The position numbers were made by a program, and so were the translations under genes. The notes under the pieces are model-generated. The model ran no database searches. It was given only the letters and a program-made list of their open reading frames with translations, and was not told the origin of the DNA. This document shows, in pieces, positions 1,674 to 51,302 of a stretch of 64,000 nt of DNA. Each line of letters begins with the position of its first letter. Within the stretch, counting starts at the first letter, position 1. Origin of the DNA: Parcubacteria group bacterium GW2011_GWA2_43_13 (GTDB taxonomy: Bacteria; Patescibacteriota; Patescibacteriia; UBA9629; GWA2-43-13); the NCBI GenBank assembly GCA_000999025.1, contig LCFM01000002.1, forward strand, positions 436 through 64,435, read 5' to 3'.

Positions 1674-1783
1674 AAAAAACACCCCTACTTGGGGGCTGTT
1701 TTTTTATCCACACCAATAAGAGGTGTATAATATGTGGTTCACGCTCTTGAGACACAACCGATTCTCCTTTACTATACAAAGAT

Positions 1784-3148
1784 ATGGCTGATGGAATGGA
1801 AAAAATCCCACCGCACAATCTTGAGGCAGAACAATCTGTGCTTGGCGCTCTTTTTATTGATCCTGACGCCATTGTTCACGTTGCGGACATTGTTACAAGC
1901 GATGATTTTTATAAAGAAGTGCACCGCATTATTTTTAACGCGATTGTGGAGGTATATGAAAAGCACCTGCCTATTGATCTTTTAAATGTCAGTAACCGAC
2001 TTTTGGAGCGCAATCAGCTGGAACTCGTTGGAGGACGCGCCTATTTAAGCGAACTCACCACCATAGTCCCCACTGCAAGCAATGTGGCGAGTTATGCCAC
2101 TATTGTGCAAAAAAAAGCAACTCTGCGCCGTCTTCTTAAAGCCGCGCATGATATTACAAGTTATGGATATAATGAAGAAGATGAAACAGAGCATTTGCTT
2201 GATATGTCAGAGCAAGCGATATTTCGGGTATCGCAAAAACATCTGCATCAAAATTTTATTCCCATTACCACAATCCTGACTGAAACATTCGACCGCATTG
2301 ATGAACTTCATCGCGGAGACGGATCTCTGCGAGGCGTACCAACCGGATTCCCTGATCTTGATAATTTAATGTCCGGTTTGCAAAAATCAGATCTGGTGAT
2401 TCTTGCGGCGCGGCCATCTGTGGGAAAAACAACATTCGCGCTCGATATCGCGCGAAATGCGGCAGTTGTGTATAAATCAAAAGTAGGGATTTTTTCACTT
2501 GAAATGTCCAAAGAACAACTTGTTGACCGTTTACTCGCAACTCAAGCAGGTATTGATTTATGGAAAATGCGAACAGGCAAACTCTCGCACCAAGAAGGGT
2601 CAGATGAATTCCCGCGCATCGGGCAAGCCATGGGCGTGCTTTCCGAAGCGCCGATTTTTATTGACGACACGCCAAGCGCCAATGTCATGCAAATACGCAC
2701 AAAAGCGCGGCGCTTGCAGGCAGAACACGGGCTTGATTTTATTATCATTGATTATCTTCAGTTGATGGAATCGCGAGCCCAAAGCAAATCAAGCGACAAT
2801 CGTGTGCAGGAAATCGCGGAAATTTCACGCGGATTAAAATCAATCGCGCGCGAGTTAAACATTCCGGTACTTGCCCTGTCCCAACTCTCTCGCGCTGTTG
2901 AAATGACAAAACCCGCTATTCCAAAACTTGCACATTTGCGTGAATCTGGTTCAATTGAACAAGATGCTGATATCGTTATGTTTGTCTACCGTAAAGCTAT
3001 GGATCGTAATTATCGAGAAGAGGACTTATCTCAAGAAGAAAAACATCTCACAGAAATCCACATTGCCAAGCACCGCAACGGTCCGACCGGGGTTATCAAA
3101 CTATTCTTTGACGCAAATCATGTAACATTTAAAAGTTTAGCTAAATAA
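1784..3148 (+). CDS. dnaB: replicative DNA helicase DnaB
   Basis: 454 aa. Has the N-terminal LEAEQSVLGALF motif and Walker A GKT in ARPSVGKTTFALD. Helicase motifs and the C-terminal RecA-like fold are all present. Confidence 0.95.
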   Translation: MADGMEKIPPHNLEAEQSVLGALFIDPDAIVHVADIVTSDDFYKEVHRIIFNAIVEVYEKHLPIDLLNVSNRLLERNQLELVGGRAYLSELTTIVPTASNVASYATIVQKKATLRRLLKAAHDITSYGYNEEDETEHLLDMSEQAIFRVSQKHLHQNFIPITTILTETFDRIDELHRGDGSLRGVPTGFPDLDNLMSGLQKSDLVILAARPSVGKTTFALDIARNAAVVYKSKVGIFSLEMSKEQLVDRLLATQAGIDLWKMRTGKLSHQEGSDEFPRIGQAMGVLSEAPIFIDDTPSANVMQIRTKARRLQAEHGLDFIIIDYLQLMESRAQSKSSDNRVQEIAEISRGLKSIARELNIPVLALSQLSRAVEMTKPAIPKLAHLRESGSIEQDADIVMFVYRKAMDRNYREEDLSQEEKHLTEIHIAKHRNGPTGVIKLFFDANHVTFKSLAK

Positions 3149-10561: not shown

Positions 10562-11866
10562 CTATGCATCGTATGAATAACTATGGTACGCCATTTGTGC
10601 CTCAACCTTTTTCATTGATTCGATTATAACAGACACCACAATCAAAAGCGAGGTTCCGCCAATCACAAGGTTAAATCCGGTAAATGATTGCACCAATAAC
10701 GGCAAAATAGCGATAATCCCCAAAAACACTGACCCAGCAAGTAAAATCCTGTTTACCACTGCCTGCATATACACTTCGGTCTCTTTGCCCGGCCTGATTC
10801 CCGGGATAAAACTCCCTTGCTTTTGAAGATTTTCCGCTATCTGACGCGGTTGGAAAATAATGGCAGTATAAAAATAGGTGAATGCCACCACTAATACGAA
10901 ATAAATAATACCGTACGGAAGCCCGCCTTGCTGGAATATATTAATGATAAATCCTGCCACGTCCGCAACCCATGGAGATGTCGCGCGCACAAAAAATTGC
11001 GCAATAAACGGGGGAAACAACACCACTGATATGGCAAAGATAATCGGAATCACTCCTGCCATGTTCACGCGCAAAGGAAGATAATTCTGCGCGCCTGACA
11101 TCAACCGTCCGCCGCGCATTTGACGCGCGTGGGCAATGGGGACATTGCGCTGGCCTTCTGTAATAAACACCACCCCGGCGACAACAATAACCGCGATCAC
11201 GAGCAATAACACGTAATTCGTCAATGACGCAGGGTTGTTTGAAATATCCAAACCGATTTGAAATGCGGCTTGCGGAAGGCTGGCGATAATTCCGGCGAAA
11301 ATCAATAAGGAAATGCCGTTTCCCAAACTGCGTTCCGAAATAATCTCACCGATCCACATAAGTAAAACCGTACCAGCCATGACTGTGATAATTGTAGTTA
11401 CCCATGTTATAGGCGTAAACTGATCAAGAAACTGCGAAGCAGATCCCGCACCCGAGCTTGCCCGACTCAAAAAAATAATAGTGCTATATCCTTGCAATGC
11501 GGCTAACGGAACTGTTAACAACCGCGTCCATTTATTGATAATACGTTGCCCTCGCTCTCCTTCTTTTGATAAATCCTCAAAATAGGGAACAATCATGCCG
11601 AGTAATTGAAAAATGATAGATGACGTAATATACGGGCCCACGCCAAGCATGACAATAGAAAAGTTCTCAAGCCCGCCACCGGTTAAAAGATTTAAAAGCC
11701 CCAACACTTGATTTCCTGATAAAGACGCGCGCAATGCAGTAGTATCAATGCCTGGAACAGGAATATGCGCAAGAAACCGAAACGCGACAAGCATCAGCAA
11801 TACAAAAATCAAATCATTGCGCAACTGTTTGGTGGTGAGAAATTGTTTAAATCGGGTTGAAAATGA
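10562..11866 (-). CDS. secY: preprotein translocase subunit SecY
   Basis: 10 TM helices, with a start at MSFSTRFKQF. Sits in the conserved position after rplO. Confidence 0.9.
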   Translation of the reverse strand, partial: SFSTRFKQFLTTKQLRNDLIFVLLMLVAFRFLAHIPVPGIDTTALRASLSGNQVLGLLNLLTGGGLENFSIVMLGVGPYITSSIIFQLLGMIVPYFEDLSKEGERGQRIINKWTRLLTVPLAALQGYSTIIFLSRASSGAGSASQFLDQFTPITWVTTIITVMAGTVLLMWIGEIISERSLGNGISLLIFAGIIASLPQAAFQIGLDISNNPASLTNYVLLLVIAVIVVAGVVFITEGQRNVPIAHARQMRGGRLMSGAQNYLPLRVNMAGVIPIIFAISVVLFPPFIAQFFVRATSPWVADVAGFIINIFQQGGLPYGIIYFVLVVAFTYFYTAIIFQPRQIAENLQKQGSFIPGIRPGKETEVYMQAVVNRILLAGSVFLGIIAILPLLVQSFTGFNLVIGGTSLLIVVSVIIESMKKVEAQMAYHSYSYDA

Positions 11867-22253: not shown

Positions 22254-23444
22254 TTATTTAAATATTTCTGTCACCGCGCCTGCTCCAACAGTTCTGCCTC
22301 CTTCACGGATAGCAAATCGCATTTGTGCTTCCATAGCAATCGGTTTCGCAAGTTTGATTTTCAAACTCACAGTATCTCCTGGCATAACCATTTCTGCTCC
22401 TTCTGGCAATTCAACCTCACCGGTCACATCAGTTGTTCTGATATAAAACTGCGGTTTATATCCCTTAAAGAATGGAGTATGCCGGCCACCTTCATCTTTA
22501 GACAAAATATACACTTCAGCCGCAAACTCTGTATGCGGAGTAATGGATCCTGTTTTTGCAAGCACCTGACCGCGCTCGACATCGGTCTTTTTGGTTCCGC
22601 GCAAAAGAATACCCGCATTATCGCCTGCCTGACCTTGATCTAATGACTTGTTAAACATTTCAACGCCAGTTACAACTGTTTTCTGCGTATTAACTAAACC
22701 GACGATTTCAACTTCTTCATTCACTTTCACCATCCCACGCTCAATGCGACCTGTTACCACTGTTCCTCGGCCTTCTATGGAAAAGATGTCTTCTATCGGC
22801 ATGAGAAACGGTTTGTCAACATCACGTTGCGGAAGAGGGATATAGGTATCAAGCGCATTCATGAGATCCATGATCGGCTGTGCCCATTTTTCATCAGTGG
22901 AATTTTCAAGCGCTTTTAACGCAGAACCACGGATAATAGGCGTTTCATCACCGGGAAATTCATATTTTTTGAGCAAATCGCGAATTTCTTCTTCAACTAA
23001 ATCAACCAATTCAGGATCATCCACCATGTCAATTTTGTTCAAAAAGACAACAATATACGGAACGCCAACCTGACGAGCAAGAAGAATGTGCTCTCGAGTT
23101 TGAGGCATCGGTCCGTCTGCCGCAGATACAACTAAAATAGCGCCATCCATCTGTGCCGCTCCGGTGATCATGTTTTTGACATAATCAGCATGACCTGGAC
23201 AATCAACGTGAGCGTAGTGACGGGCTTCTGTTTGATACTCAACATGCGATGTCGCAATAGTAATACCACGCGCTTTTTCTTCTGGCGCGTTATCAATTTG
23301 GTCAACGCTTCTTTCCGCGGCAACCAATCCCTTCGCGTGCAATACTTTTAAAATTGCGGCGGTCAGTGTTGTTTTCCCATGATCAACGTGACCAATGGTA
23401 CCCACATTTATATGGGGCTTTGAACGATCAAATGCTTCAGCCAT
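22254..23444 (-). CDS. tuf: elongation factor Tu
   Basis: Start at [26 protein letters not shown]. Confidence 0.95.
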
Positions 23445-23489
23445 GGTGAGTTTTTTCCACAGCCCCCACACCTATTACCTATTCTTCCA

Positions 23490-23509: not shown

Positions 23510-23774
23510 TCTCCTAAAAAATAAAAGATGTGTTTAGAAGAATAGGTGCGGGGTTTCAATCCAGCCGTGGCGCTATATTAAATATGTTCAATCATGATAA
23601 GATACCGCATGCTTTCGATATCCTCTCATAAAGGCACATGAATAATAGATGAGAAAAATTGTCATGTTATCCACAGCAGGAAACAGTGATGATTGTACCA
23701 CACTGCGTCAAAAAAACAAGGGGATGATTGCACCCCGATCCCCCCTTATATACACATCAAGGAAAAAAGAGCAT

Positions 23775-33026: not shown

Positions 33027-33087
33027 GAAAATACCTTAATTGTTTCGTATTATTCTTCGAGAGCTTCGAATTTCGTATTTTAAAACT

Positions 33088-34545
33088 ATGGCCCTCCATG
33101 ACGAAATCACAACCCGAAAAAACCAGCTCGCAAAAATCCGCGAATGTGGTATCCATCCGTATCCTGAAAAATATCCCAAAGATAAAGCAATGGCTGATAT
33201 TCTTTCGTTAAAAGAAGGCGAGCAAATCTCAACCGCGGGTCGCATTACTTCAATCCGCACAATGGGCAAAATCACGTTTTGCCATATTTCAGATATAAGC
33301 GGAAAAATTCAAATCGTTATTCAAGAAGATACAATCGGAAAAGATGTGTACAAGCAATTTCATGATATCTATTCAATTGGCGATTTTATCGGTGCGAGTG
33401 GAGAACTCTTTACAACAAAAAGTGGCGAACTTTCAATCAAAGCAACTTCCACGACATTTTTAGGCAAAGCGCTGTTACCGTTGCCGGAAAAATGGGCAGG
33501 GCTCAAAGACACAGAAACCAAATACCGCCAACGCTATCTTGACCTGATTGCAAATCCGGAAAGTAAAAAACTCTTTTTATTCCGCAGTAATGTCATTAAG
33601 GCGGTGCGGGAATTTTACTGGCGCAATGGGTTTCAAGAAGTGGAAACACCAACATTATTGCATGTCGCAACCGGCGCTGTGGCAAACCCATACAAAACGC
33701 ATCATACTGCCCTTAATCAGGATTTATTTTTGCGCATCTCACACGAGTTGCCGTTAAAAGAACTCATTGTCGGAGGATTTGAAAAAATTTTTGAAATAGG
33801 AAAAGCATTCCGCAACGAAGGTATTGATCCATCTCATCTTCCTGAACACACACATCTTGAACATTACTCCGCGTACTGGAATTTTGAAGACAATATCGCG
33901 TTTACGGAAAAAATGTTTTCGTATTTGTTTGAAACATTAGGGATCGCTCAAACGCTTGTCATGGATAGCGGAGTTGAAGTTCAGCTCAAACAGCCATGGC
34001 CGAGATATAACTTTGTGGAATTGATCAAAGAAAAAACAGGCATTGATGTTTTAGCGTATGAAGCGGCAGATACCTTGCGATCGGACATTAAGAAAAAAAA
34101 TATTTCCTTTGATGGAATTGATCAGATGTCGCTTGCAGGATTGATGGATAATCTGTATAAAAAAATTGTGCGCCCGACACTTATCAATCCAACATTTTTG
34201 ACAACTTATCCTGAAATCTTACAGCCACTCGCGCGCAGAAACGATGAAAATCAAAATGTAGTAGATCAATTCCAGCTTGTTATCAATGGCTGGGAAGTGG
34301 TAAAGGCGTACAGCGAATTGGTTGACCCAATAGATCAACAGCAACGGTTTGCGCAACAATCAGAACATAAAGAGCAGGGTGAAATTGAAGTCATGGAGGG
34401 TGATGATGAATATATCACCTCTATGAAACACGGCATGCCGCCGATTTCCGGACTTGGCATGGGGCTGGATCGCCTTGTCGCGCTGTTATCCGGCAATTCC
34501 AACCTCCGTGACGTTGTGCTGTTCCCATTATTGAGGAAAAAGTAA
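33088..34545 (+). CDS. lysS: lysyl-tRNA synthetase (class II)
   Basis: Start at MALHDEITTRK. Has an OB anticodon-binding domain and class II motifs (FRNEG, GLGMGLDRL). Confidence 0.95.
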   Translation: MALHDEITTRKNQLAKIRECGIHPYPEKYPKDKAMADILSLKEGEQISTAGRITSIRTMGKITFCHISDISGKIQIVIQEDTIGKDVYKQFHDIYSIGDFIGASGELFTTKSGELSIKATSTTFLGKALLPLPEKWAGLKDTETKYRQRYLDLIANPESKKLFLFRSNVIKAVREFYWRNGFQEVETPTLLHVATGAVANPYKTHHTALNQDLFLRISHELPLKELIVGGFEKIFEIGKAFRNEGIDPSHLPEHTHLEHYSAYWNFEDNIAFTEKMFSYLFETLGIAQTLVMDSGVEVQLKQPWPRYNFVELIKEKTGIDVLAYEAADTLRSDIKKKNISFDGIDQMSLAGLMDNLYKKIVRPTLINPTFLTTYPEILQPLARRNDENQNVVDQFQLVINGWEVVKAYSELVDPIDQQQRFAQQSEHKEQGEIEVMEGDDEYITSMKHGMPPISGLGMGLDRLVALLSGNSNLRDVVLFPLLRKK

Positions 34546-34591: not shown

Positions 34592-35179
34592 CTATTGCGC
34601 ACATCCCCTCATGTTGAGGAAATTTCGCAAAAGAAGTTTGCCATGTTCAGTCAGTATTGCCTCAGGATGAAACTGAACTCCGTACACCGGCAATGTGCGA
34701 TGCGCGACCCCCATGATCTCGCCATCGTCTGTTGACTCGGCGGTGACGCGCAGAGAACCGACAGGAAATTCCGCCCTATCAATCACCAAAGAGTGATACC
34801 GACATGCGGTAAACTTGTTTGGGATGCCCGCAAACACGCCGGTCCCATCATGCTTGATGATAGATGTCTTGCCATGCATGAGGCGCGTGGCACGAACGAT
34901 CGTACCCCCAAACACAACGCCAATCGCCTGATGACCAAGGCACACCCCCAGTACCGGAGTACCTTGATCCCCAAATGCGCGAATGGCATCAATAGAAACA
35001 CCGGCCTCTTTGGGAGTGCATGGTCCCGGAGACACGACGACATGAGATGGCCCCATGAGCAAAAGCTCACCTACCCCCAAGAGGTTATTGCGGACAACCG
35101 TAACATCACCACCCATCTCCCCAAGATACTGAACGAGGTTATAGGTGAATGAATCAAAATTGTCGATTATCAGGATCAC
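34592..35179 (-). CDS. trpG: glutamine amidotransferase component II of anthranilate/aminodeoxychorismate synthase
   Basis: Starts MILIIDNFDSFTYNLVQY. Catalytic Cys is in GVCLGHQ, with the His/Glu triad. Confidence 0.85.
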   Translation of the reverse strand: MILIIDNFDSFTYNLVQYLGEMGGDVTVVRNNLLGVGELLLMGPSHVVVSPGPCTPKEAGVSIDAIRAFGDQGTPVLGVCLGHQAIGVVFGGTIVRATRLMHGKTSIIKHDGTGVFAGIPNKFTACRYHSLVIDRAEFPVGSLRVTAESTDDGEIMGVAHRTLPVYGVQFHPEAILTEHGKLLLRNFLNMRGCAQ

Positions 35180-35184
35180 GGTTG

Positions 35185-36669
35185 CTATCCCTCCAATCCG
35201 TTATGCGCATAAGCAAGCGCGCGGAACATCCCGCCTGCTTTCCGCAAACACTCATCATGCTCACGAGCAGGGTCAGAATCCGCAACAATCCCAGCGCCTA
35301 CTTGCCAGGATATGGAGTCCTTCGTCACCACTGCCATGCGAATCGCAATAGCGACATCAAAATGCCCGTTAGGATTTACCCAACCAACAACACCGCCGTA
35401 AGGGCCGCGACGCGTTACCTCCAATTCATCAATGATCTCCATCGCGCGCACTTTCGGAGCTCCAGAGAGCGTGCCTATGGGGAAAGTGGCACGAAATGCG
35501 TCAAACTGAGAACACGTTGATCTCATCGTGCCTTCAACCGTCGAGGAAAGATGCATCACAGTCGAGTATCGTTCAACTTCCATGAAACGCGTTACTCGAA
35601 CAGTACCCGAGACGCATACCCTGCCAAGATCGTTTCTGCTAAGATCCACAAGCATGACGTGCTCTGCTTGTTCTTTTAGATCTTGTCGAAGTTCTTGAGC
35701 AAGGTATTCATCTTCTTCTGGAGTTAATCCGCGACGCCGTGTTCCCGCAAGCGGTCGCGTGATGATATCTGCCCCTGCCACGCGGATAAGCATTTCAGGA
35801 GAAGATCCGACCAGAGCACATTCTCCGCAATTCAAGAAAAAGAGGTACGGAGAAGGATTCACGCTTCGCAACGCCCGATAGAGCTGAAACGCCGACATAG
35901 TTCGCGGGACTGACAAGCGCTGTGAAAGCACTACCTGAATCACATCGCCTGCGCTAATGTAGTCCTTTGCCCGACGCACAGAATGCTCAAACTCCGATTG
36001 AGAGACCGTTGACACAGCAGACGGAAGCATCCCATGCCCGGCGCGAACTTCACAGGTTCTCTCCTCTTGAAGAAACGAGCATGTTGTATTGATACACTCA
36101 ACCGCACTGGCATACGAACCATCAACGCCTTCTCTTAAAGGGTCAGCGAATGCGACAACCGACATGGTATGTCGCACATGGTCAAACACCACGACTGTTT
36201 TCATTGTCATGAAAAAACAGTCGGCCAACCCGAGATCATCAACCGGTGCGTTTGGCAGATGTTCGATGTATCGAACCATGTCATACCCAAAGTACCCCAC
36301 ACTCGCTCCAATAAAACGAGGCAGTGAAGGAATTGACGCGCATCGGGATGCGTTGATGAACAATTCACATTCGCGGATTGGATCCACCGCCGAGAAGGTT
36401 TGAACCAACCCAGAAGTGTTGTCATGAATCGTAACGCGATTGTCCTTTGAGGAGAACGTCCGGATGGGATCCACTCCAATGCATGAATAGCGGCCCAGCC
36501 GTTCGCCACCTTCGACTGATTCAAGAAGAAACCCGCGACGCACATCGCCACCAAGGCGGAAAAACGCCGAAACCGGAGTAATGGTATCTGCTAATATTTC
36601 ATGCACAACTGGGATTCTCACCCCGGTATGTGCCTGTGCGACTGCTCGAAAATCAGCTAACGTTTGCAC
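35185..36669 (-). CDS. trpE: anthranilate synthase component I (or PabB)
   Basis: Chorismate-binding domain (GAPKVRAMEIIDELE, RGPYGGVVGW). Start chosen at the GTG with an AAGGAG SD. The upstream T-box-like leader with a UGG-containing loop favours TrpE. GC is elevated versus flanks. Confidence 0.8.
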   Translation of the reverse strand: MQTLADFRAVAQAHTGVRIPVVHEILADTITPVSAFFRLGGDVRRGFLLESVEGGERLGRYSCIGVDPIRTFSSKDNRVTIHDNTSGLVQTFSAVDPIRECELFINASRCASIPSLPRFIGASVGYFGYDMVRYIEHLPNAPVDDLGLADCFFMTMKTVVVFDHVRHTMSVVAFADPLREGVDGSYASAVECINTTCSFLQEERTCEVRAGHGMLPSAVSTVSQSEFEHSVRRAKDYISAGDVIQVVLSQRLSVPRTMSAFQLYRALRSVNPSPYLFFLNCGECALVGSSPEMLIRVAGADIITRPLAGTRRRGLTPEEDEYLAQELRQDLKEQAEHVMLVDLSRNDLGRVCVSGTVRVTRFMEVERYSTVMHLSSTVEGTMRSTCSQFDAFRATFPIGTLSGAPKVRAMEIIDELEVTRRGPYGGVVGWVNPNGHFDVAIAIRMAVVTKDSISWQVGAGIVADSDPAREHDECLRKAGGMFRALAYAHNGLEG

Positions 36670-37085
36670 TTTCTTGCTCCTTTGCAAGATGCGCGAGTTG
36701 AGTTGTGAGAAAGAACGACGCACGAGGAGAAACAAAAAACCCCTCATCCTTATGCGTATCAAAAAATACGCAACAAGGACGAAGGGTCTTCTTTATTTTT
36801 TAACAAAAAAGAGACACTCCGCGGTGCCACCTTGGTTCCTATCAATATATATCATTGACATTGATAGGCACTTTTCGTGTACTCCTTTGCGGGATATACA
36901 ATATCCTATGGTAACGGAGGAAACCGGATTATGCTACAATCATAGCTGATTTTCGCATAACCATCTGGCCTGGTCCATCGATACCGCATAAGTGAGAAGT
37001 CCTTTCAGCCCATGAGACCTCCTCTCTTGCACTCTTGCTATGGCATCTATTCCAAGCTCTTAACGATGTTGACATTGTTAATGAA
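36670..37085 (-). ncRNA. candidate T-box riboswitch-like leader (tRNA-Trp type?) upstream of trpE
   Basis: On the minus strand: AACCAAGGTGGCACCGCGG (13/13 match to the T-box core GGUGGNACCGCGG), an F-box-like CCGUUA, a stem-III-like hairpin cctatcaat...attgatagg, an AGUA motif, and UGG in a predicted loop. The terminator/antiterminator geometry is non-canonical: a T-tract follows 8 nt after the T-box, and a larger hairpin plus T-tract lies at about 36720-36790. Confidence 0.45.
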
Positions 37086-37092
37086 CACTATA

Positions 37093-37121
37093 AGTATATA
37101 GTATCATTTCATTTTTGTCAA
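37093..37121 (-). promoter_or_regulatory. strong sigma70-like promoter TTGACA-17-TATACT driving the trpE leader
   Basis: Consensus -35, a 17-nt spacer, and a near-consensus -10. Confidence 0.6.
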
Positions 37122-37131
37122 ATGCAATCAA

Positions 37132-37175
37132 AAAAAGCAACACCCTCTCGGGGCGGTTGCGCCCGAAAGAGGGTG
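37132..37175 (-). terminator. intrinsic terminator (minus strand) ending an upstream small transcript
   Basis: caccctctttcgggcgcaaccgccccgagagggtg, then ttgcttttttt. Confidence 0.6.
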
Positions 37176-37375
37176 TGCTTAGTGACCATGGTGTACCATA
37201 TACCCTTGGTGCCTTACTCAAGAAGCGTAATGTGCCCCCCAATGATAATCGGTCTCTTGCGAGACGCGTGGATCCGCACTCACACTCCGCAGAGTATAAG
37301 TATAAAGATCGTTGTTAGGAGACGTTATAGAACACTTTTTACACTCCCCTTGTAAAGCACTTTTATTATAGCAAA
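37176..37375 (-). ncRNA. candidate ~230-nt small RNA between an extended -10 promoter (TGcTATAAT at about 37365) and the terminator at 37132..37175
   Basis: No ORF above 10 codons with an SD. Contains a GNRA-type hairpin gtctc-gcaa-gagac. Confidence 0.3.
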
Positions 37376-37497
37376 ATAGAGATTAAAAGAAAATGAATAA
37401 CCTTGCCATTGTGTGCAAAATAAAAACAGGGTTATTAAAAAAACAGAGGTTATGCGTATAACTTCCGTTCAAAGTCATTTGCATAACCCTTCTGTCT

Positions 37498-37713
37498 TCA
37501 ATTGAAGACAATCTCCGTCCCTTCGGGGTAACGCTCTACCCAATCTTTCCCTAAATGCGTCCGAACAAATTCTTCAAAGGTAACGATATCGTCACCGACG
37601 TCATTATCACCGACGTCATCGTCACCGATGTCATCGTCCTCAACGACCAAAGATGATGCTGGAGGATCGGGGAAAACAAGCGTCCTCCCTCTAACACACA
37701 CACGTACAGGCAT
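37498..37713 (-). CDS. small highly acidic protein (71 aa) with internal 15-bp tandem repeats
   Basis: Good SD (AGGAGAGGGAG 7 nt before the ATG). Encodes DDDIGDDDVGDNDVGDD from about 3.5 copies of gtcaccgacgtcatc. Has its own terminator at about 37440-37495. Confidence 0.5.
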   Translation of the reverse strand: MPVRVCVRGRTLVFPDPPASSLVVEDDDIGDDDVGDNDVGDDIVTFEEFVRTHLGKDWVERYPEGTEIVFN

Positions 37714-37887
37714 ACTCCCTCTCCTAAAAGAACGATGTTCTCCATCAAAAAATCCCGCTGTTCGCGCGGGGTCCTTGATGTGAACTGAATGATTCCGTGG
37801 CTATGCTCACCATCAAAGATCCCGCGTCATGCGAGATTTTGCATTGGTGTTAAATTGGTAAAAAAAACCAATATTCATAGCCATTGT

Positions 37888-37936
37888 GTATTTTTAATCA
37901 TATTCTCATTTTTGTCAACCATTTTTGTGTGGATAA
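37888..37936 (-). promoter_or_regulatory. minus-strand promoter (TTGACA-17-TAAAAAT) abutted upstream by a consensus DnaA box TTATCCACA
   Basis: Plus strand reads ttgtcaac-N8-tgtggataa, identical in architecture to 38486..38529. Drives ORF 37498..37713 through a leader with a terminator-like hairpin. Confidence 0.45.
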
Positions 37937-37951
37937 ACAACCTCACTCTAA

Positions 37952-37985
37952 CCCCCTCCTTTATCAAGGAGGGGGTAGGGGGCGG
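37952..37985. repeat. family-B palindrome
   Basis: ccccctcctttatcaaggaggggg. Confidence 0.55.
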
Positions 37986-38094
37986 TAAAAAAACAGGGTA
38001 AGAACGTTGTCTCACCCTTGCGCATGGAGGATCACTCAATACGGTTTGCCCTTATAAAAGAGGGATTACCTCTCCCAAGAGCGTTGGTTAAAAG

Positions 38095-38298
38095 TTACCG
38101 ATCCGACGCATTGTCTTCGACAACGATGTTGATCGTTGCTTCGGTTCCCCGAAGAACTAACCCAAAATCATTGCCGAAACAATGCCCGACATTCCGTGTC
38201 GGGCAACTGCCGTTGCAGTGCCAACACGGAATTGATCGCTCGCCAACGCCCAACATACGGGCGAGGGCGAGAATATCGTCGCGACGCCGATCTTCCAT
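38095..38298 (-). CDS. small Cys/His-rich protein (67 aa; CWHCNGSC...HC), putative metal-binding
   Basis: GC-rich. Start MEDRRRDD with an AAGGGGG SD. Lies between the promoter at 38486..38529 and the terminator at about 37990-38020. The leader carries an attenuator-like terminator (38340-38370). Confidence 0.35.
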   Translation of the reverse strand: MEDRRRDDILALARMLGVGERSIPCWHCNGSCPTRNVGHCFGNDFGLVLRGTEATINIVVEDNASDR

Positions 38299-38485
38299 TG
38301 CCACTACCCCCTTTGTTAGAAAGATTGCTTTCCCTAACAAAAACCTCGCCCGAGTAAGGCGAGGGTCAAGGTCCATGGGATTGGTTTTTTAGTATTACAC
38401 AGCACCTTTAAAACTCGCCTTATCTCTAAGGATGAGATTAATGACGACGAGTTTAATGCAATGCATGTGCATACTGAATATAAGA

Positions 38486-38529
38486 TTAAAGTACCATTAA
38501 AATTTTGTCAACGACTTATCTGTGGATAA
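38486..38529 (-). promoter_or_regulatory. minus-strand promoter (TTGACA-17/18-TAATCT) abutted by a consensus DnaA box TTATCCACA
   Basis: Plus strand reads ttgtcaac-gacttatc-tgtggataa. Confidence 0.4.
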
Positions 38530-38603
38530 CAAAAACAAAAGCGGGGATTATTCCCCGCCATTCGTGAGTTACTTGTCTTATATTCGTGTACCATCCGTGT
38601 CGA

Positions 38604-39197
38604 TTAAAACATAATATCCTCTTCTGCCCGCTTATACTGGTGAATCTCTTCCGGCCCAAACCATAAATGGATTTCATTATCCGCTTCTGCCTGCGTTTCA
38701 GAAGCATGCACAATATTTTTAATTGCTCTGCTTTCAAGATTTGCAACTGCCGGCGAATCAACGCTGAAATCGCCGCGAATAGTTCCCATTTCAGCAAACA
38801 CAGGTAAGGAATGGCCAACTAATTTGCGCACCATATCAATCGCGTGTATGCCCTGCACAACCATTGCCACAATCGGACCTGATGACAGGTATTCAAATAA
38901 AAGTTCTTTCACCTTCGTACCTATTTCCATTTTATTATCAGTCCCCTGCGCCGCAATAGGATCAATATTGTATTCAGTAAATGTCTTTAAGGTTTTTTCT
39001 CCAAGCCGCTCAACCCATGCAGGATCAGAGGGCAAATGTTTTTCAAGATGGTTACGATCCACCCATACCATTTTCATGGCAATAATTTTCAAACCACGCC
39101 GCTCAATACGACTCAAAATTTCCCCAATCAACCCACGCTTTACACCGTCCGGCTTTACAAGGACAAGCGTCATTTCTTGTTTCATTTTCTGATGCAT
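38604..39197 (-). CDS. ndk: nucleoside diphosphate kinase (long form)
   Basis: LVLVKPDGVKRGLIGEI...NIVHASE has the NDK catalytic His context. Confidence 0.8.
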   Translation of the reverse strand: MHQKMKQEMTLVLVKPDGVKRGLIGEILSRIERRGLKIIAMKMVWVDRNHLEKHLPSDPAWVERLGEKTLKTFTEYNIDPIAAQGTDNKMEIGTKVKELLFEYLSSGPIVAMVVQGIHAIDMVRKLVGHSLPVFAEMGTIRGDFSVDSPAVANLESRAIKNIVHASETQAEADNEIHLWFGPEEIHQYKRAEEDIMF

Positions 39198-44946: not shown

Positions 44947-45575
44947 ATTGAACAAAGATGAGAGGTTATTATTTTTACTGATGATCTCATTTTTAATAGT
45001 TCTATCACTCCAATGGGGACACCAATATAGAGTATATCCCCCACAAGCATGTTGCGATAAAAAGGAATCCCCGCAACCAACGACGCGACCAAACCATTCA
45101 ATGTATGCGGATACAGCGTTCCAAACAGCCACACCGCGGAGTTTGTCAACAGGAAAAAAGTGAGTGAACCGAGTAATGCACATAATACCCCTCGCGACAC
45201 ACCCCTTAATCCCCTCTCAAGAGGGGAAAACGACGGCCTCCCTCCTTGAGGAGGGATTGAGGGAGGTGTCATTCGTGAGCTATTCGTCGTATATTCGTGA
45301 GCTATTCGTCCCCAAATGGCATACAACGCAAACCCCACATACACACTCACAAAAATAGGCAAGTGATACCACCCAATCACGCTATCGCTGACCATCATGG
45401 CACCAAAGCTCAAGAGAATTCCAACCCACCACGGTTTTAGATAATATGCACTTAAAAAACCAACTGCGCCGATAGGAGTAAAATTCCATGGATGCGGAAG
45501 AAGTCGAGCCACAATAACAAGCAAAAAGAAAATAATGAAAAATCCATATCGTTTCATAGACCAGTATCTTATCAT
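44922..45575 (-). CDS. polytopic membrane protein carrying an in-frame composite repeat insertion
   Basis: Six predicted TM helices. Residues HEYTTNSSRMTPPSIPPQGGRPSFSPLERGLRGVSRG are encoded by repeats at 45211..45311. Confidence 0.55.
   Translation of the reverse strand: MIRYWSMKRYGFFIIFFLLVIVARLLPHPWNFTPIGAVGFLSAYYLKPWWVGILLSFGAMMVSDSVIGWYHLPIFVSVYVGFALYAIWGRIAHEYTTNSSRMTPPSIPPQGGRPSFSPLERGLRGVSRGVLCALLGSLTFFLLTNSAVWLFGTLYPHTLNGLVASLVAGIPFYRNMLVGDILYIGVPIGVIELLKMRSSVKIITSHLCSIWQKTTKN
45211..45311. repeat. composite repeat inside the CDS: two family-B palindromes plus a duplicated attcgtgagctattcgtc unit
   Basis: cccctctcaagagggg; cctccctccttgaggagggattgagggagg; cattcgtgagctattcgtcgtatattcgtgagctattcgtcc. 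Confidence 0.7.
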
Positions 45576-50585: not shown

Positions 50586-51146
50586 TTATTGGTTTTTTAT
50601 TATTGGTTTTCTGTTATTAACTATTGGGGGGTTCCCACCAAAGGCGCTGTGCCCGCCTCTGGCTGGGGGTCCGCCTTTGGCAGAGTTTTTTGTCATCCGA
50701 GGCATCAATGCGTCTACTTCCTCTTTAAATGTTTCAACATCTGAAAACTGGCGATACACAGAAGCAAATCTGATATAGGCGACCTTATCAAATTTTTTCA
50801 ACTGCCGCATAACAATATCACCAATAGCATCGCTTGGTAACTCTTGCTGGCGCTTTAATTGGATATCGCGCTCAATCGTATGGACTAACGCAGATATATC
50901 TTCTTGGGTGTATGGCCGTTTGTATAACGCGCGCTTTAACCCTGCCTGAAGTTTATCGCGCGAATACGGTTCCCTGCGACCATCGCGCTTTATCACAGCA
51001 AGTCCTAATATTTCGATTTCCTCAACTGTAGAAAAACGGAACGCGCATTTTGTGCATTCACGTCTCCTCCGCACGGTTAATCCGTCAGATGAAACACGAG
51101 AGTCAAGCACGCGAGTTTCTTGATGATGGCACCCAGGACATTGCAT
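50586..51146 (-). CDS. nrdR: transcriptional repressor NrdR with a repeat-derived C-terminal tail
   Basis: Starts MQCPGCHHQETRVLDSR (zinc ribbon) and has an ATP-cone. The tail TKNSAKGGPPARGGHSAFGG... is encoded by the repeat at 50632..50694. Confidence 0.9.
   Translation of the reverse strand: MQCPGCHHQETRVLDSRVSSDGLTVRRRRECTKCAFRFSTVEEIEILGLAVIKRDGRREPYSRDKLQAGLKRALYKRPYTQEDISALVHTIERDIQLKRQQELPSDAIGDIVMRQLKKFDKVAYIRFASVYRQFSDVETFKEEVDALMPRMTKNSAKGGPPARGGHSAFGGNPPIVNNRKPIIKNQ
50632..50694. repeat. family-D repeat at the 3' end of nrdR
   Basis: About 85% identical to 18062..18125. Confidence 0.75.
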
Positions 51147-51260
51147 ACATGTGTATACTCCTCCCCCTCCTTTCAATACATAAAACAGAGGGTTTTTTCA
51201 TTATACTCCTTTCACAAAGCGTCGCACAATTAACAATATATAGTAGTAGTAATAATCAGT

Positions 51261-51302
51261 ATACCACAATATGTGGTATCAACGAAGAATCTCTGTGGAT
51301 AA
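51261..51302 (-). promoter_or_regulatory. nrdR upstream region: 19-bp near-perfect palindrome ATACCACAATATGTGGTAT (NrdR-box-like) plus a consensus DnaA box TGTGGATAA 15 bp away
   Basis: Palindrome at 51261..51279. DnaA box at 51294..51302, next to a TTGATA -35-like hexamer on the minus strand. Confidence 0.4.

Follow-up and report, generated by a model that had tools for sequence, protein, structure and literature searches.

A 1.8-kb island in a Jacksonbacteria genome with predicted attenuator leaders, a covarying structured RNA and a tryptophan T-box

In Escherichia coli, the trpL, ilvL and leuL leaders follow a four-region logic of attenuation, in which a short open reading frame (ORF) covers regions 1 and 2 and stops right after region 2. 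Trp-specific T-boxes are known upstream of trp biosynthesis operons in Firmicutes and Chloroflexi, and promoters controlled by DnaA boxes are known for dnaA and nrdAB in E. coli as well as for the small-protein gene sda in Bacillus subtilis. In bacteria of the candidate phyla radiation (CPR), which cannot be grown alone and possess tiny genomes with few recognisable regulators, gene regulation is almost unknown. A search of the literature brought up neither T-boxes nor 6S RNA for CPR/Patescibacteria, nor any work on regulation in Jacksonbacteria. Here, we describe a 1.8-kb island (38600..36770, minus strand) in a window of 64,000 nucleotides from Parcubacteria group bacterium GW2011_GWA2_43_13 (contig LCFM01000002.1, positions 436 to 64,435), a CPR host belonging to Candidatus Jacksonbacteria. 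The island, located between ndk and trpEG, probably comprises four autonomous minus-strand transcription units, designated unit A, unit B, RNA C and the T-box unit. This confidence, which is moderate, is a joint one for the explanation as a whole: the four units, attenuator leaders governed by stalling in an upstream open reading frame (uORF), DnaA-controlled promoters, the structured RNA C and the T-box.

A consensus scan of the island yielded nine terminator-like sites where dinucleotide shuffles gave 2.4±1.7; all nine lie on the minus strand. The hairpins of the island fold with z-scores of −3.1 to −6.3. Promoter-like consensus matches are not enriched (4 versus 4.9±2.1 in shuffles); the promoters are supported instead because they are conserved in relatives. 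These observations agree with a first-pass annotation made from the sequence alone, which had described a succession of mini transcription units on the minus strand, each independent and furnished with its own promoter and terminator. A check of the sequence recovered all features listed there, at the same place or within a few bases, including the 15-bp tandem repeats (37588..37638, 3.4 copies), a palindrome assigned to a family B (37954..37973) and a GC mosaic, whose maximum of 0.60 lies in 38200-38299 and whose promoter segments reach only 0.29-0.36. The anatomy of the island and its conservation are observed directly; from them we infer its transcription.

Two related loci carry the comparison. 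L001 is a metagenome-assembled genome of Jacksonbacteria, the closest other species in the genome collection, with an Ndk protein 86% identical to that of the window; there, ndk is followed by two units of leader and small ORF, RNA C and the convergent lysS gene, without trpEG. The metagenome contig L096 contains unit A, RNA C, the T-box and trpE; its alignment with the window shows about 81% identity across ndk and unit A, and the flanking housekeeping genes are likewise about 81% identical.

The features of unit A, including the upstream edge of the island, are as follows.

38540..38559, minus strand: intrinsic terminator of ndk (GGCGGGGAATAATCCCCGC and a T-run), the island's upstream edge, with a stem conserved in L096.
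38483..38511, minus strand: predicted promoter A, −35 TTGACA at 38511..38506 and −10 TAATCT at 38488..38483 (17-nucleotide spacer) or TTTAAT at 38490..38485 (15-nucleotide spacer).
38338..38482, minus strand: leader A, a putative attenuator of about 135 nucleotides, folding at z = −4.7 and homologous to leaders in L096 and L001.
38395..38472, minus strand: uORF A, 25 codons, MHMHCIKLVVINLILRDKASFKGAV, which starts 10 nucleotides past the −10 element, lacks a Shine-Dalgarno sequence and extends over both region 1 and region 2.
38364..38338, minus strand: predicted terminator of leader A, CCTCGCC-TTACTC-GGGCGAGG and a T-run (hairpin 38364..38344), regions 3:4.
38095..38298, minus strand: ORF-A, 67 amino acids, lineage-specific, with a C-x2-C-x3-C-x8-C motif and the ribosome-binding site AAAGGGGG.
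37988..38082, minus strand: 3′ untranslated region (3′-UTR) of unit A, with a hairpin (38082..38048) and then an intrinsic terminator (38018..37995) and U-run.

Conservation between the window and L096 follows these elements. Identity is only 48% in the ndk 3′-UTR versus 87.5% in the DnaA box and promoter A, 89% in the 5′ rod of the leader (regions 1:2), 65% in the leader linker, 87% in the terminator and 85.5% in the 3′-UTR hairpin; in ORF-A it is 81% over codons 1-33 and 59% over codons 34-67. The equivalent of promoter A in L001 reads TTGACG-17-TAATGT, and the stem of the terminator in the 3′-UTR, which the first-pass annotation had placed after the Cys-rich ORF, shows compensatory changes in L096. 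The attenuator-like terminator of leader A had likewise been noted together with an upstream competitor. This competitor is the antiterminator (2:3), in which AAGGCGAG…AAGGU pairs with ACCUU…CUCGCC, a complementarity at z = −4.2 that none of 500 shuffles equalled. Counterparts of uORF A with equal length and frame are found in L096 (MHMHFVKLVIINLILGDKARFIGAV) and L001 (MHQQTSKLFIINKLVTDKVSFDTEA), giving a gap-free alignment across three genomes.

Compared with its L096 orthologue, ORF-A shows proportions of synonymous (pS) and nonsynonymous (pN) differences of 0.61 and 0.22, respectively, a ratio of 0.36, against 1.30 and 1.40 in frames +1 and +2. Because pN/pS is low in its own frame alone, this signature argues that ORF-A is a real protein-coding gene, and the earlier description of the island as non-coding was wrong for at least this Cys-rich ORF. 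The conserved motif includes CFGxDFGL, and a weak echo of it occurs at the syntenic position in L001 (pairwise E=0.011). Searches of Pfam, NCBIfam, PHROGs and PADLOC with the small and antisense ORFs of the island yielded no family, and those libraries together with the sequence searches gave neither family nor homologue for ORF-A. A word-index search of 5.8 billion sequences with ORF-A and ORF-B returned self matches only. One PADLOC match to an antisense ORF (E=0.012) is at chance level, and two huge repeat proteins, obtained next to ORF-A itself in an exhaustive HMMER search of 1.84 billion representatives, were rejected as artefacts; in the one inspected, P0004, a stretch of 17 residues was matched eight times. 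An AlphaFold2 model of ORF-A from the single sequence (mean predicted local distance difference test, pLDDT, 50.5) was unusable.

Unit A also varies among the relatives. L001 has two GC-rich small ORFs in place of one (10858-10995 and 11058-11332): the first is acidic, with 45 amino acids (MATEHLDEERLEEEQPEHH…), and the second is Cys-rich, with about 91 amino acids, sharing with ORF-A only the motif PC..C…C…C[FW]G.DF. On the reverse strand of L096, insertions of about 80 nucleotides (GAAAGGAGGCGGGATCCGCAGTGAATCC… and …GGTGCATAGGATTCTTTGGCGGAGCGTGCAAGATTCTTTTCTTGCGCGC) lie between the hairpin and the terminator of the ORF-A 3′-UTR (window ~38020-38040); they have no counterpart in the window and look hairpin-rich.

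Unit B repeats this layout.

37890..37918, minus strand: predicted promoter B, TTGACA-17-AAAAAT (or 16-TAAAAA), −35 at 37918..37913, matching 10 of 12 consensus positions.
37746..37889, minus strand: leader B, a second putative attenuator with the layout of leader A, comprising a rod, an antiterminator and a terminator (37770..37754) with U-run.
37884..37813, minus strand: uORF B, MAMNIGFFYQFNTNAKSRMTRDL, inside leader B.
37498..37713, minus strand: ORF-B, 71 amino acids, acidic, with the ribosome-binding site AGGAGAGGGAG and (D/N)D(V/I)GD repeats arising from the 15-bp tandem repeat.
37433..37499, minus strand: terminator of unit B, a long hairpin and U7, −26.8 kcal/mol, z = −6.3, which the scan tool missed (long loop).

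Promoter B, the leader hairpin with its T-tract, the acidic-repeat ORF and the terminator after it were thus all present as first described. In the antiterminator of leader B, 14 of 15 base pairs form between GCGGGAUCUUUGAUG and CAUCAAGGACCCCGC (z = −5.0), and an analogous leader occurs in L001 (11430-11572). ORF-B is putatively coding: it has a good ribosome-binding site, its known copies are all identical, and it belongs to no family in Pfam, NCBIfam, PHROGs or PADLOC. It is annotated as a hypothetical protein of Candidatus Jacksonbacteria RIFCSPLOWO2_02_FULL. At the same position L001 encodes an acidic ORF of 64 amino acids that is not similar to ORF-B. The whole unit (~37990..37400, from terminator A to the RNA C promoter) is absent in L096, where 185 nucleotides are found instead.

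The third unit contains no ORF.

37365..37373, minus strand: predicted RNA C promoter, extended −10 TGcTATAAT, identical in L096 and TGaTATACT in L001.
37128..37358, minus strand: RNA C, about 225 nucleotides, ORF-less, with a long-range closing helix that ties the 5′ end to a distant segment, two to three internal hairpins, a 3′ hairpin and a terminator (37175..37132).

Here, the first-pass annotation had listed the extended −10 element, an ORF-less region of about 230 nucleotides with a GNRA hairpin and a strong terminator. Promoter and terminator were located as described and the unit is indeed ORF-less; it is not merely a hairpin, however, since RNA C is a conserved structured RNA with covariation. 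Its fold reaches z = −5.5 against shuffles, and its 3′ hairpin, GCACCAAGGGU…ACACCAUGGU, is invariant. RNA C is the sole part of the island that BLAST found in L001, where the copy has the same promoter type and a terminator. A pattern scan of metagenomes for RNA C revealed one new lineage, L096, at 173.9 bits. In the alignment of the three sequences, 10 of 66 predicted pairs have changed on both sides and are still paired, as compared to 3.3±1.5 in shuffles and 0-3 in slid-partner controls. Moreover, 94.9% of the alignment cells at these pairs are paired, versus 44-54% when the partners are slid.

Because only the convergent lysS comes after RNA C in L001, RNA C is not a leader. We take it to be a stand-alone structured small RNA (sRNA) of about 225 nucleotides, which would probably act in trans or bind a protein. 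A covariance model built from the window and L001 copies found no further homologue in 71 related loci and the window, nhmmer profiles of RNA C and leader A gave no further homologues, and two viral scans with RNA C and the leaders returned no copies. The remaining matches of the pattern scan were a duplicate of L001 and chance matches inside genes; L097 and L099 are duplicates. Rfam, including 6S (RF00013) and signal recognition particle RNA, gave no match to RNA C beyond chance, also in an E-value scan of 271 nucleotides. A role as antisense regulator of the neighbouring leaders was rejected, with duplex energies at shuffle level.

A near-identical copy of only the RNA C 3′ hairpin (GCACCAAGGGTTCAGTGAACACCATGGT, 18 bits) occurs in unrelated context in L095 (11252-11281) and L098 (6791-6820); these copies may reflect chance or a shared short motif.

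The fourth unit leads into the tryptophan genes.

37093..37121, minus strand: predicted promoter of the trpEG leader, TTGACA-17-TATACT, 11 of 12 consensus positions, conserved in L096.
36734..37063, minus strand: Trp T-box riboswitch with specifier UGG followed by A, the T-box sequence AAGGUGGCACCGCG and a terminator with U-run (36792..36734).
36669..35185, minus strand: trpE, GTG start at 36669, assigned by Pfam and by TIGR00564 trpE_most (526.5 versus a cutoff of 517.7, equivalog).
35179..34592, minus strand: trpG, assigned by Pfam, downstream of the T-box together with trpE.

The T-box model RF00230 matches 36772-37063(−) with 75.1 bits and E=6.5e-16 over model positions 1-219 of 219, a score below the gathering score of 93; the L096 T-box, with the same UGG specifier, scores 68.3 bits (E=5.1e-13), likewise below 93. 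In an Rfam scan of the whole window at gathering scores, the sole match was a tRNA at 1599-1670. The specifier context, …GGUAUCGA-UGG-A-CCAGG…, is aligned to the model's specifier position, and the distal Stem I motifs AGAGA and GCUGAAA are present. At ~36833..36819, the T-box sequence AAGGUGGCACCGCGG aligns with high posterior probability to the model consensus …GGUGGNACCGCG…; with C as the N of its UGGN, it could pair with G73, the discriminator base of bacterial tRNA-Trp, a tRNA that the window itself does not contain. The terminator, a long hairpin with U6 (fold z = −6.3), was missed by the scan tool, again owing to its long loop. Its 5′ arm, CUUCGUCC, is the segment that pairs with the T-box sequence in the model, and the two pairings are mutually exclusive. 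These sequence criteria place the trpE leader, as a new member, in the known class of T-box riboswitches; it would read uncharged tRNA-Trp through its UGG specifier and then let transcription continue into trpEG. Of this unit the first-pass annotation had named the leader promoter; the promoter is present, and the element behind it is a complete Trp-specific T-box of about 290 nucleotides. Together with RNA C and the two attenuator-like leaders, it bears out the expectation that the island may hold sRNAs or cis-regulatory RNAs. The comparisons proposed there, an Rfam scan and an alignment with relatives, recovered RF00230 in the trpE leader and found leader A, the RNA C hairpins and ORF-A conserved in L096.

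Both small-ORF promoters carry an element absent from the first-pass list, an exact DnaA box.

38521..38529, minus strand: DnaA box A, exact consensus TTATCCACA, 9 nucleotides upstream of the promoter A −35.
37928..37936, minus strand: DnaA box B, exact consensus TTATCCACA, 9 nucleotides upstream of the promoter B −35.
1704-1712, plus strand: box upstream of the promoter of the helicase gene dnaB (1784-3148), oriented as at units A and B.
51294-51302, minus strand: box upstream of the promoter of nrdR (50586-51176), oriented as at units A and B.

Box A is exact in L096, and L001 has TTTTCCACA at the equal position, within TTWTNCACA. The window contains five exact boxes where 0.5±0.7 are expected, all of them intergenic, and four of the five lie upstream of and point at a gene or unit, namely dnaB, nrdR, unit A and unit B. 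The composite of a box, 6-14 nucleotides and TTGAY occurs three times in the window against 0.15 expected. Its presence in further CPR loci suggests that an architecture in which a DnaA-box-like 9-mer precedes the −35 element is used repeatedly in CPR promoters; we infer that DnaA would bind and regulate these promoters.

The fifth box, 23667-23675(+), is intergenic upstream of tuf (22254-23471) and points away from it. In other Patescibacteria loci, the composite is seen at L028 17531(−), L004 8099(−) and L025 11094(+), with the 9-mer about 8-10 nucleotides before a TTGAC −35; that of L028 reads TTATCCACA-N9-TTGACA-N17-TATAAT.

The leaders of units A and B would add a second level of control. 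We compared five leaders, namely A and B of the window, A of L096, and A and B of L001, with positions numbered from a few bases after the −10 element. The terminator is present in the minimum-free-energy fold of all five; four of them fold at z = −2.4 to −4.7, and the L096 leader was folded without shuffles. In all five, the alternative pairings 1:2, 2:3 and 3:4, the last with its U-run, are directly observed. The 2:3 complementarity exceeds that of shuffled leaders at z = −4.2, −3.8, −6.1, −5.0 and −2.1, and in four leaders the 2:3 partner segment begins at position 63. Moreover, every leader has an ATG 5-12 nucleotides past the −10 element that opens an ORF of 23-25 codons; this ORF spans regions 1 and 2 and ends directly behind the latter. 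The A-type leaders are homologous across the three genomes (reciprocal nhmmer E=0.0015 and 0.034), and A-type and B-type leaders have their architecture, not their sequence, in common; an alignment of four leaders gave only a weak consensus and was discarded as evidence of a single common motif. By reading of the scan, the island is the only place in the 64-kb window where a terminator precedes a Shine-Dalgarno-led ORF in a plausible leader position.

To model a ribosome on the uORF, all bases up to 12 nucleotides past the A-site codon were made unpairable. With the ribosome at codons ~3 to 13-15, the terminator probability is about 0; it is back at 0.9-1.0 once the ribosome has reached codons 12-17, the exact codon varying among leaders, and stays there up to the stop codon.

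These data suggest the following scheme, according to which the leaders most likely act by transcription attenuation. The rod 1:2 would sequester region 2, which is complementary to the 5′ arm of the terminator (region 3). When the rod forms, the terminator 3:4 would form as well and the small gene would remain untranscribed; when region 1 is occupied, the pairing 2:3 would replace the terminator and allow read-through. Region 1 would most likely be occupied by a ribosome that has stalled within the first half of the uORF, whose 23-25 codons lie near the 5′ end of the predicted transcript, in the manner of the leader-peptide attenuation of trp and ilv. Through the DnaA boxes, firing of the promoters of units A and B would in addition be tied to replication status.

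Several points weigh against this explanation. Promoters, transcription start sites and termination are predictions, and the elements are carried by three lineages only, with thin covariation in the leaders. The T-box score of 75.1 stays below the Rfam gathering threshold of 93, ORF-B is without homologue or comparative support, and the complementarity of RNA C to neighbouring mRNAs and leaders gives duplex energies no better than shuffles (z = −0.4 to −1.6). The uORFs in particular have no Shine-Dalgarno sequence, their occurrence is individually only weakly above chance (shuffle P = 0.04-0.21), their pN/pS of 0.56-0.68 is uninformative, and their peptides (MHMHCIKLVVINLIL…, MAMNIGFFYQFNTNA…) contain no run of one regulatory codon. 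The stall window is rich in Ile, Leu and Val in the A-type and in Phe and Asn in the B-type leaders, which points to no single signal that they would sense. The gap-free conservation of the uORFs could equally be explained by constraint on the RNA rod.

Because the uORFs combine the missing Shine-Dalgarno sequence and codon run with such P and pN/pS values, a switch operated by a ligand or protein is a serious rival, if in our estimate a rather doubtful one. The leaders would then be riboswitch-like or protein-dependent attenuators, in which a ligand, an RNA-binding protein or an sRNA stabilises or opens the rod; a protein acting in this way is possibly the small protein encoded downstream. 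The uORF would be a by-product of a closing helix whose 5′ strand happens to hold an AUG, with UAA or UAG following the 3′ strand, and its start and stop codons do coincide with the closing-helix strands (UAUGCA with UGCAUA). The downstream ORF is less strongly conserved than rod and terminator, and most of the substitutions that separate the window from L096 lie in loops or at the ends of helices. Nevertheless, none of 4227 Rfam families matches, even at E≤10 with lax filters: neither a lax-filter scan of 761 nucleotides nor a scan of 2.1 kb identified a riboswitch family for leaders A and B, and the best resemblance to a leader family, RF00513 to leader B only, reaches 19.6 bits (E=0.3-0.8), below the cut-off of 41. 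Furthermore, four independent leaders resemble each other in architecture and little in sequence, which would be unusual for one aptamer class, and all five keep a frame of 23-25 codons with the stop placed just past region 2.

Attenuation by stalling in the uORF, which we prefer, concerns how the island works; a further question is how it was assembled. On the minus strand, the gene order is comEC, a gene of metallo-β-lactamase fold, a response regulator gene, ndk (39197..38604), the island, trpE and trpG, upon which lysS (33040..34545, plus strand) converges. Of the 40 closest ndk loci that were examined, only that of L001 had a comparable island; in most others, different genes come after ndk at a distance of roughly 40 to several hundred bases, in the commonest case a convergent ORF of some 505-540 amino acids. 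The trpEG genes with their T-box are absent from all 80 ndk-anchored loci of the genome collection, L001 included.

The island might accordingly be an insertion hot spot, collecting horizontally acquired cassettes along with the T-box-trpEG module, with small ORFs that are accessory or selfish and have no integrated regulatory role; we regard this as a tentative possibility. Unit B, present in the window and with an analogue in L001, is cleanly missing in L096, T-box-trpEG is shared by the window and L096 but not L001, and distant relatives carry other genes after ndk. The small ORFs are orphans and GC-richer than the promoter segments, and a palindrome of a repeat family lies at the edge of unit B. 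Outside a near-self cluster at 93%, the nearest TrpE relatives are only 50-53% identical and come from non-CPR phyla (Poribacteria, TA06, Latescibacterota, Syntrophomonadaceae and Planctomycetes); a look-up of the TrpE cluster for further homologues retrieved only a duplicate of L096. The trpEG allele of strain variants, moreover, diverges by 8% in an otherwise identical background. On the other hand, the ORF list and the protein-family scans revealed no integrase, transposase, attC-like or direct-repeat boundaries, and across three lineages purifying selection clearly acts on promoter A, leader A and RNA C. A hot spot is also compatible with the four-unit explanation, as it concerns the origin of the island and not its mechanism. 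Taken together, the island looks like a variable slot of self-contained units, some of them under clear purifying selection.

The suggestion of the first-pass annotation that the island may hold remnants of acquired DNA is supported in that parts look acquired or variable, namely trpEG-T-box (absent in L001) and unit B (absent in L096); tblastx detected no protein remnants. The related scenario, in which the island is what is left of one or more decayed conventional genes, with hairpins, promoters and small ORFs as chance features, had been named there as the outcome that would overturn its description. No ORF exceeds 125 codons, and overlapping small ORFs without family matches lie on both strands. 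However, tblastx of the island against 80 related loci gave matches to the L001 copies of leader A and RNA C alone, without any remnant of a protein, and relatives have no larger gene at this position. The terminator enrichment, the covariation of RNA C, the purifying selection on ORF-A (its pN/pS) and the T-box match at E=6.5e-16 in effect refute this idea as well, and we consider it highly improbable.

Among ten contigs representing strain microdiversity, the island was 100% identical and gave no selection signal. Three strain-variant contigs (L083, L088 and L090) carry 105-176 single-nucleotide polymorphisms (SNPs), all but three of which lie in trpE and trpG (~8% divergence); ndk, the island and the rest of the 4.8 kb are identical to the window, with one SNP in the T-box. 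This points to a trpEG allele replaced by recent recombination or to a chimeric assembly of two populations. The locus holds trpE and trpG only, with no further trp genes noted in the vicinity; metabolically, it is odd for a CPR genome to carry an anthranilate synthase that stands alone, was acquired horizontally and lies under a T-box.

The palindrome bordering unit B is one of a small family of repeats, CCCCTCC-loop-GGAGGGG with a third G-rich copy, (A)GGGGAGG or TAGGGGG, a few bases on, so that the C-rich arm has two alternative partners.

37950..37985, strand not assigned: palindrome CCCCCTCCTT-TATC-AAGGAGGGGG (37954..37973) with a third G-rich copy, TAGGGGG.

Similar palindromic elements occur at differing intergenic sites in several CPR genomes (window 45240-45270, L001 12276, L056 9843 and L096 3718).

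If the four-unit explanation holds, 1.8 kb would pack at least three layers of RNA-level control, namely a T-box on the acquired trpEG, two leaders with terminator and antiterminator, and a covarying sRNA, and DnaA boxes would be identically placed before the promoters of dnaB, nrdR and two orphan small-protein genes. The locus would offer concrete and testable examples of gene regulation in CPR organisms, and the parts specific to CPR would gain a candidate RNA family and a small, conserved Cys4 protein. It also cautions that 'non-coding islands' in CPR genomes can hide small genes missed by annotation and homology searches. Going further, one might speculate that leaders A and B form a CPR-specific class of attenuators, gating orphan small proteins on DnaA-wired promoters as a checkpoint of replication or translation status in an ultra-small symbiont, and that RNA C founds a new family of structured RNAs, regulatory or protein-binding, restricted to Jacksonbacteria; we advance this with low confidence. 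Such a class may be either near-leaderless and uORF-dependent or a new riboswitch or protein-binding leader.

How do these elements compare with the systems described at the outset? Leaders A and B share with trpL, ilvL and leuL the four-region logic and the placement of a short ORF over regions 1 and 2, and, as with trpL and ilvL, an early-stalled ribosome abolishes the terminator in silico while a ribosome at the stop restores it. They differ from the trpL type in that no Shine-Dalgarno sequence is present, the ATG lies only about 3-5 nucleotides from the predicted 5′ end, and no tandem codon run occurs. The downstream genes encode orphan small proteins rather than biosynthetic operons, in a CPR organism thought to lack most amino-acid synthesis, and the leaders have no sequence homology to known ones.

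Like known DnaA-box promoters, promoters A and B have an exact 9-mer directly upstream of the −35 element, and a small gene under a DnaA box recalls sda. Here, each promoter has a single box and not a cluster, and neither ORF-A nor ORF-B is similar to Sda or to any known family. RNA C resembles 6S and other sRNAs of about 200 nucleotides in having its own promoter, an intrinsic terminator, a long closing helix, strong structure and covariation. Unlike 6S, it folds into a multi-branch 5′ domain with a separate 3′ hairpin and terminator instead of a single rod with a central bubble, and it was found in three related genomes only.

The T-box stands closest to its described counterparts, with a full-length model match, the AGAGA and GNUGAAA motifs, GGUGGCACCGCG with UGGC, a long terminator and trpE downstream. 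It differs from them in a base of Stem I (K-turn region) that aligns poorly, in insertions of 28 and 34 nucleotides relative to the model, in its CPR host and in its predicted control of trpE and trpG alone. No part of the island is thus categorically new: the leaders vary known kinds of regulation, and RNA C is a new candidate family.

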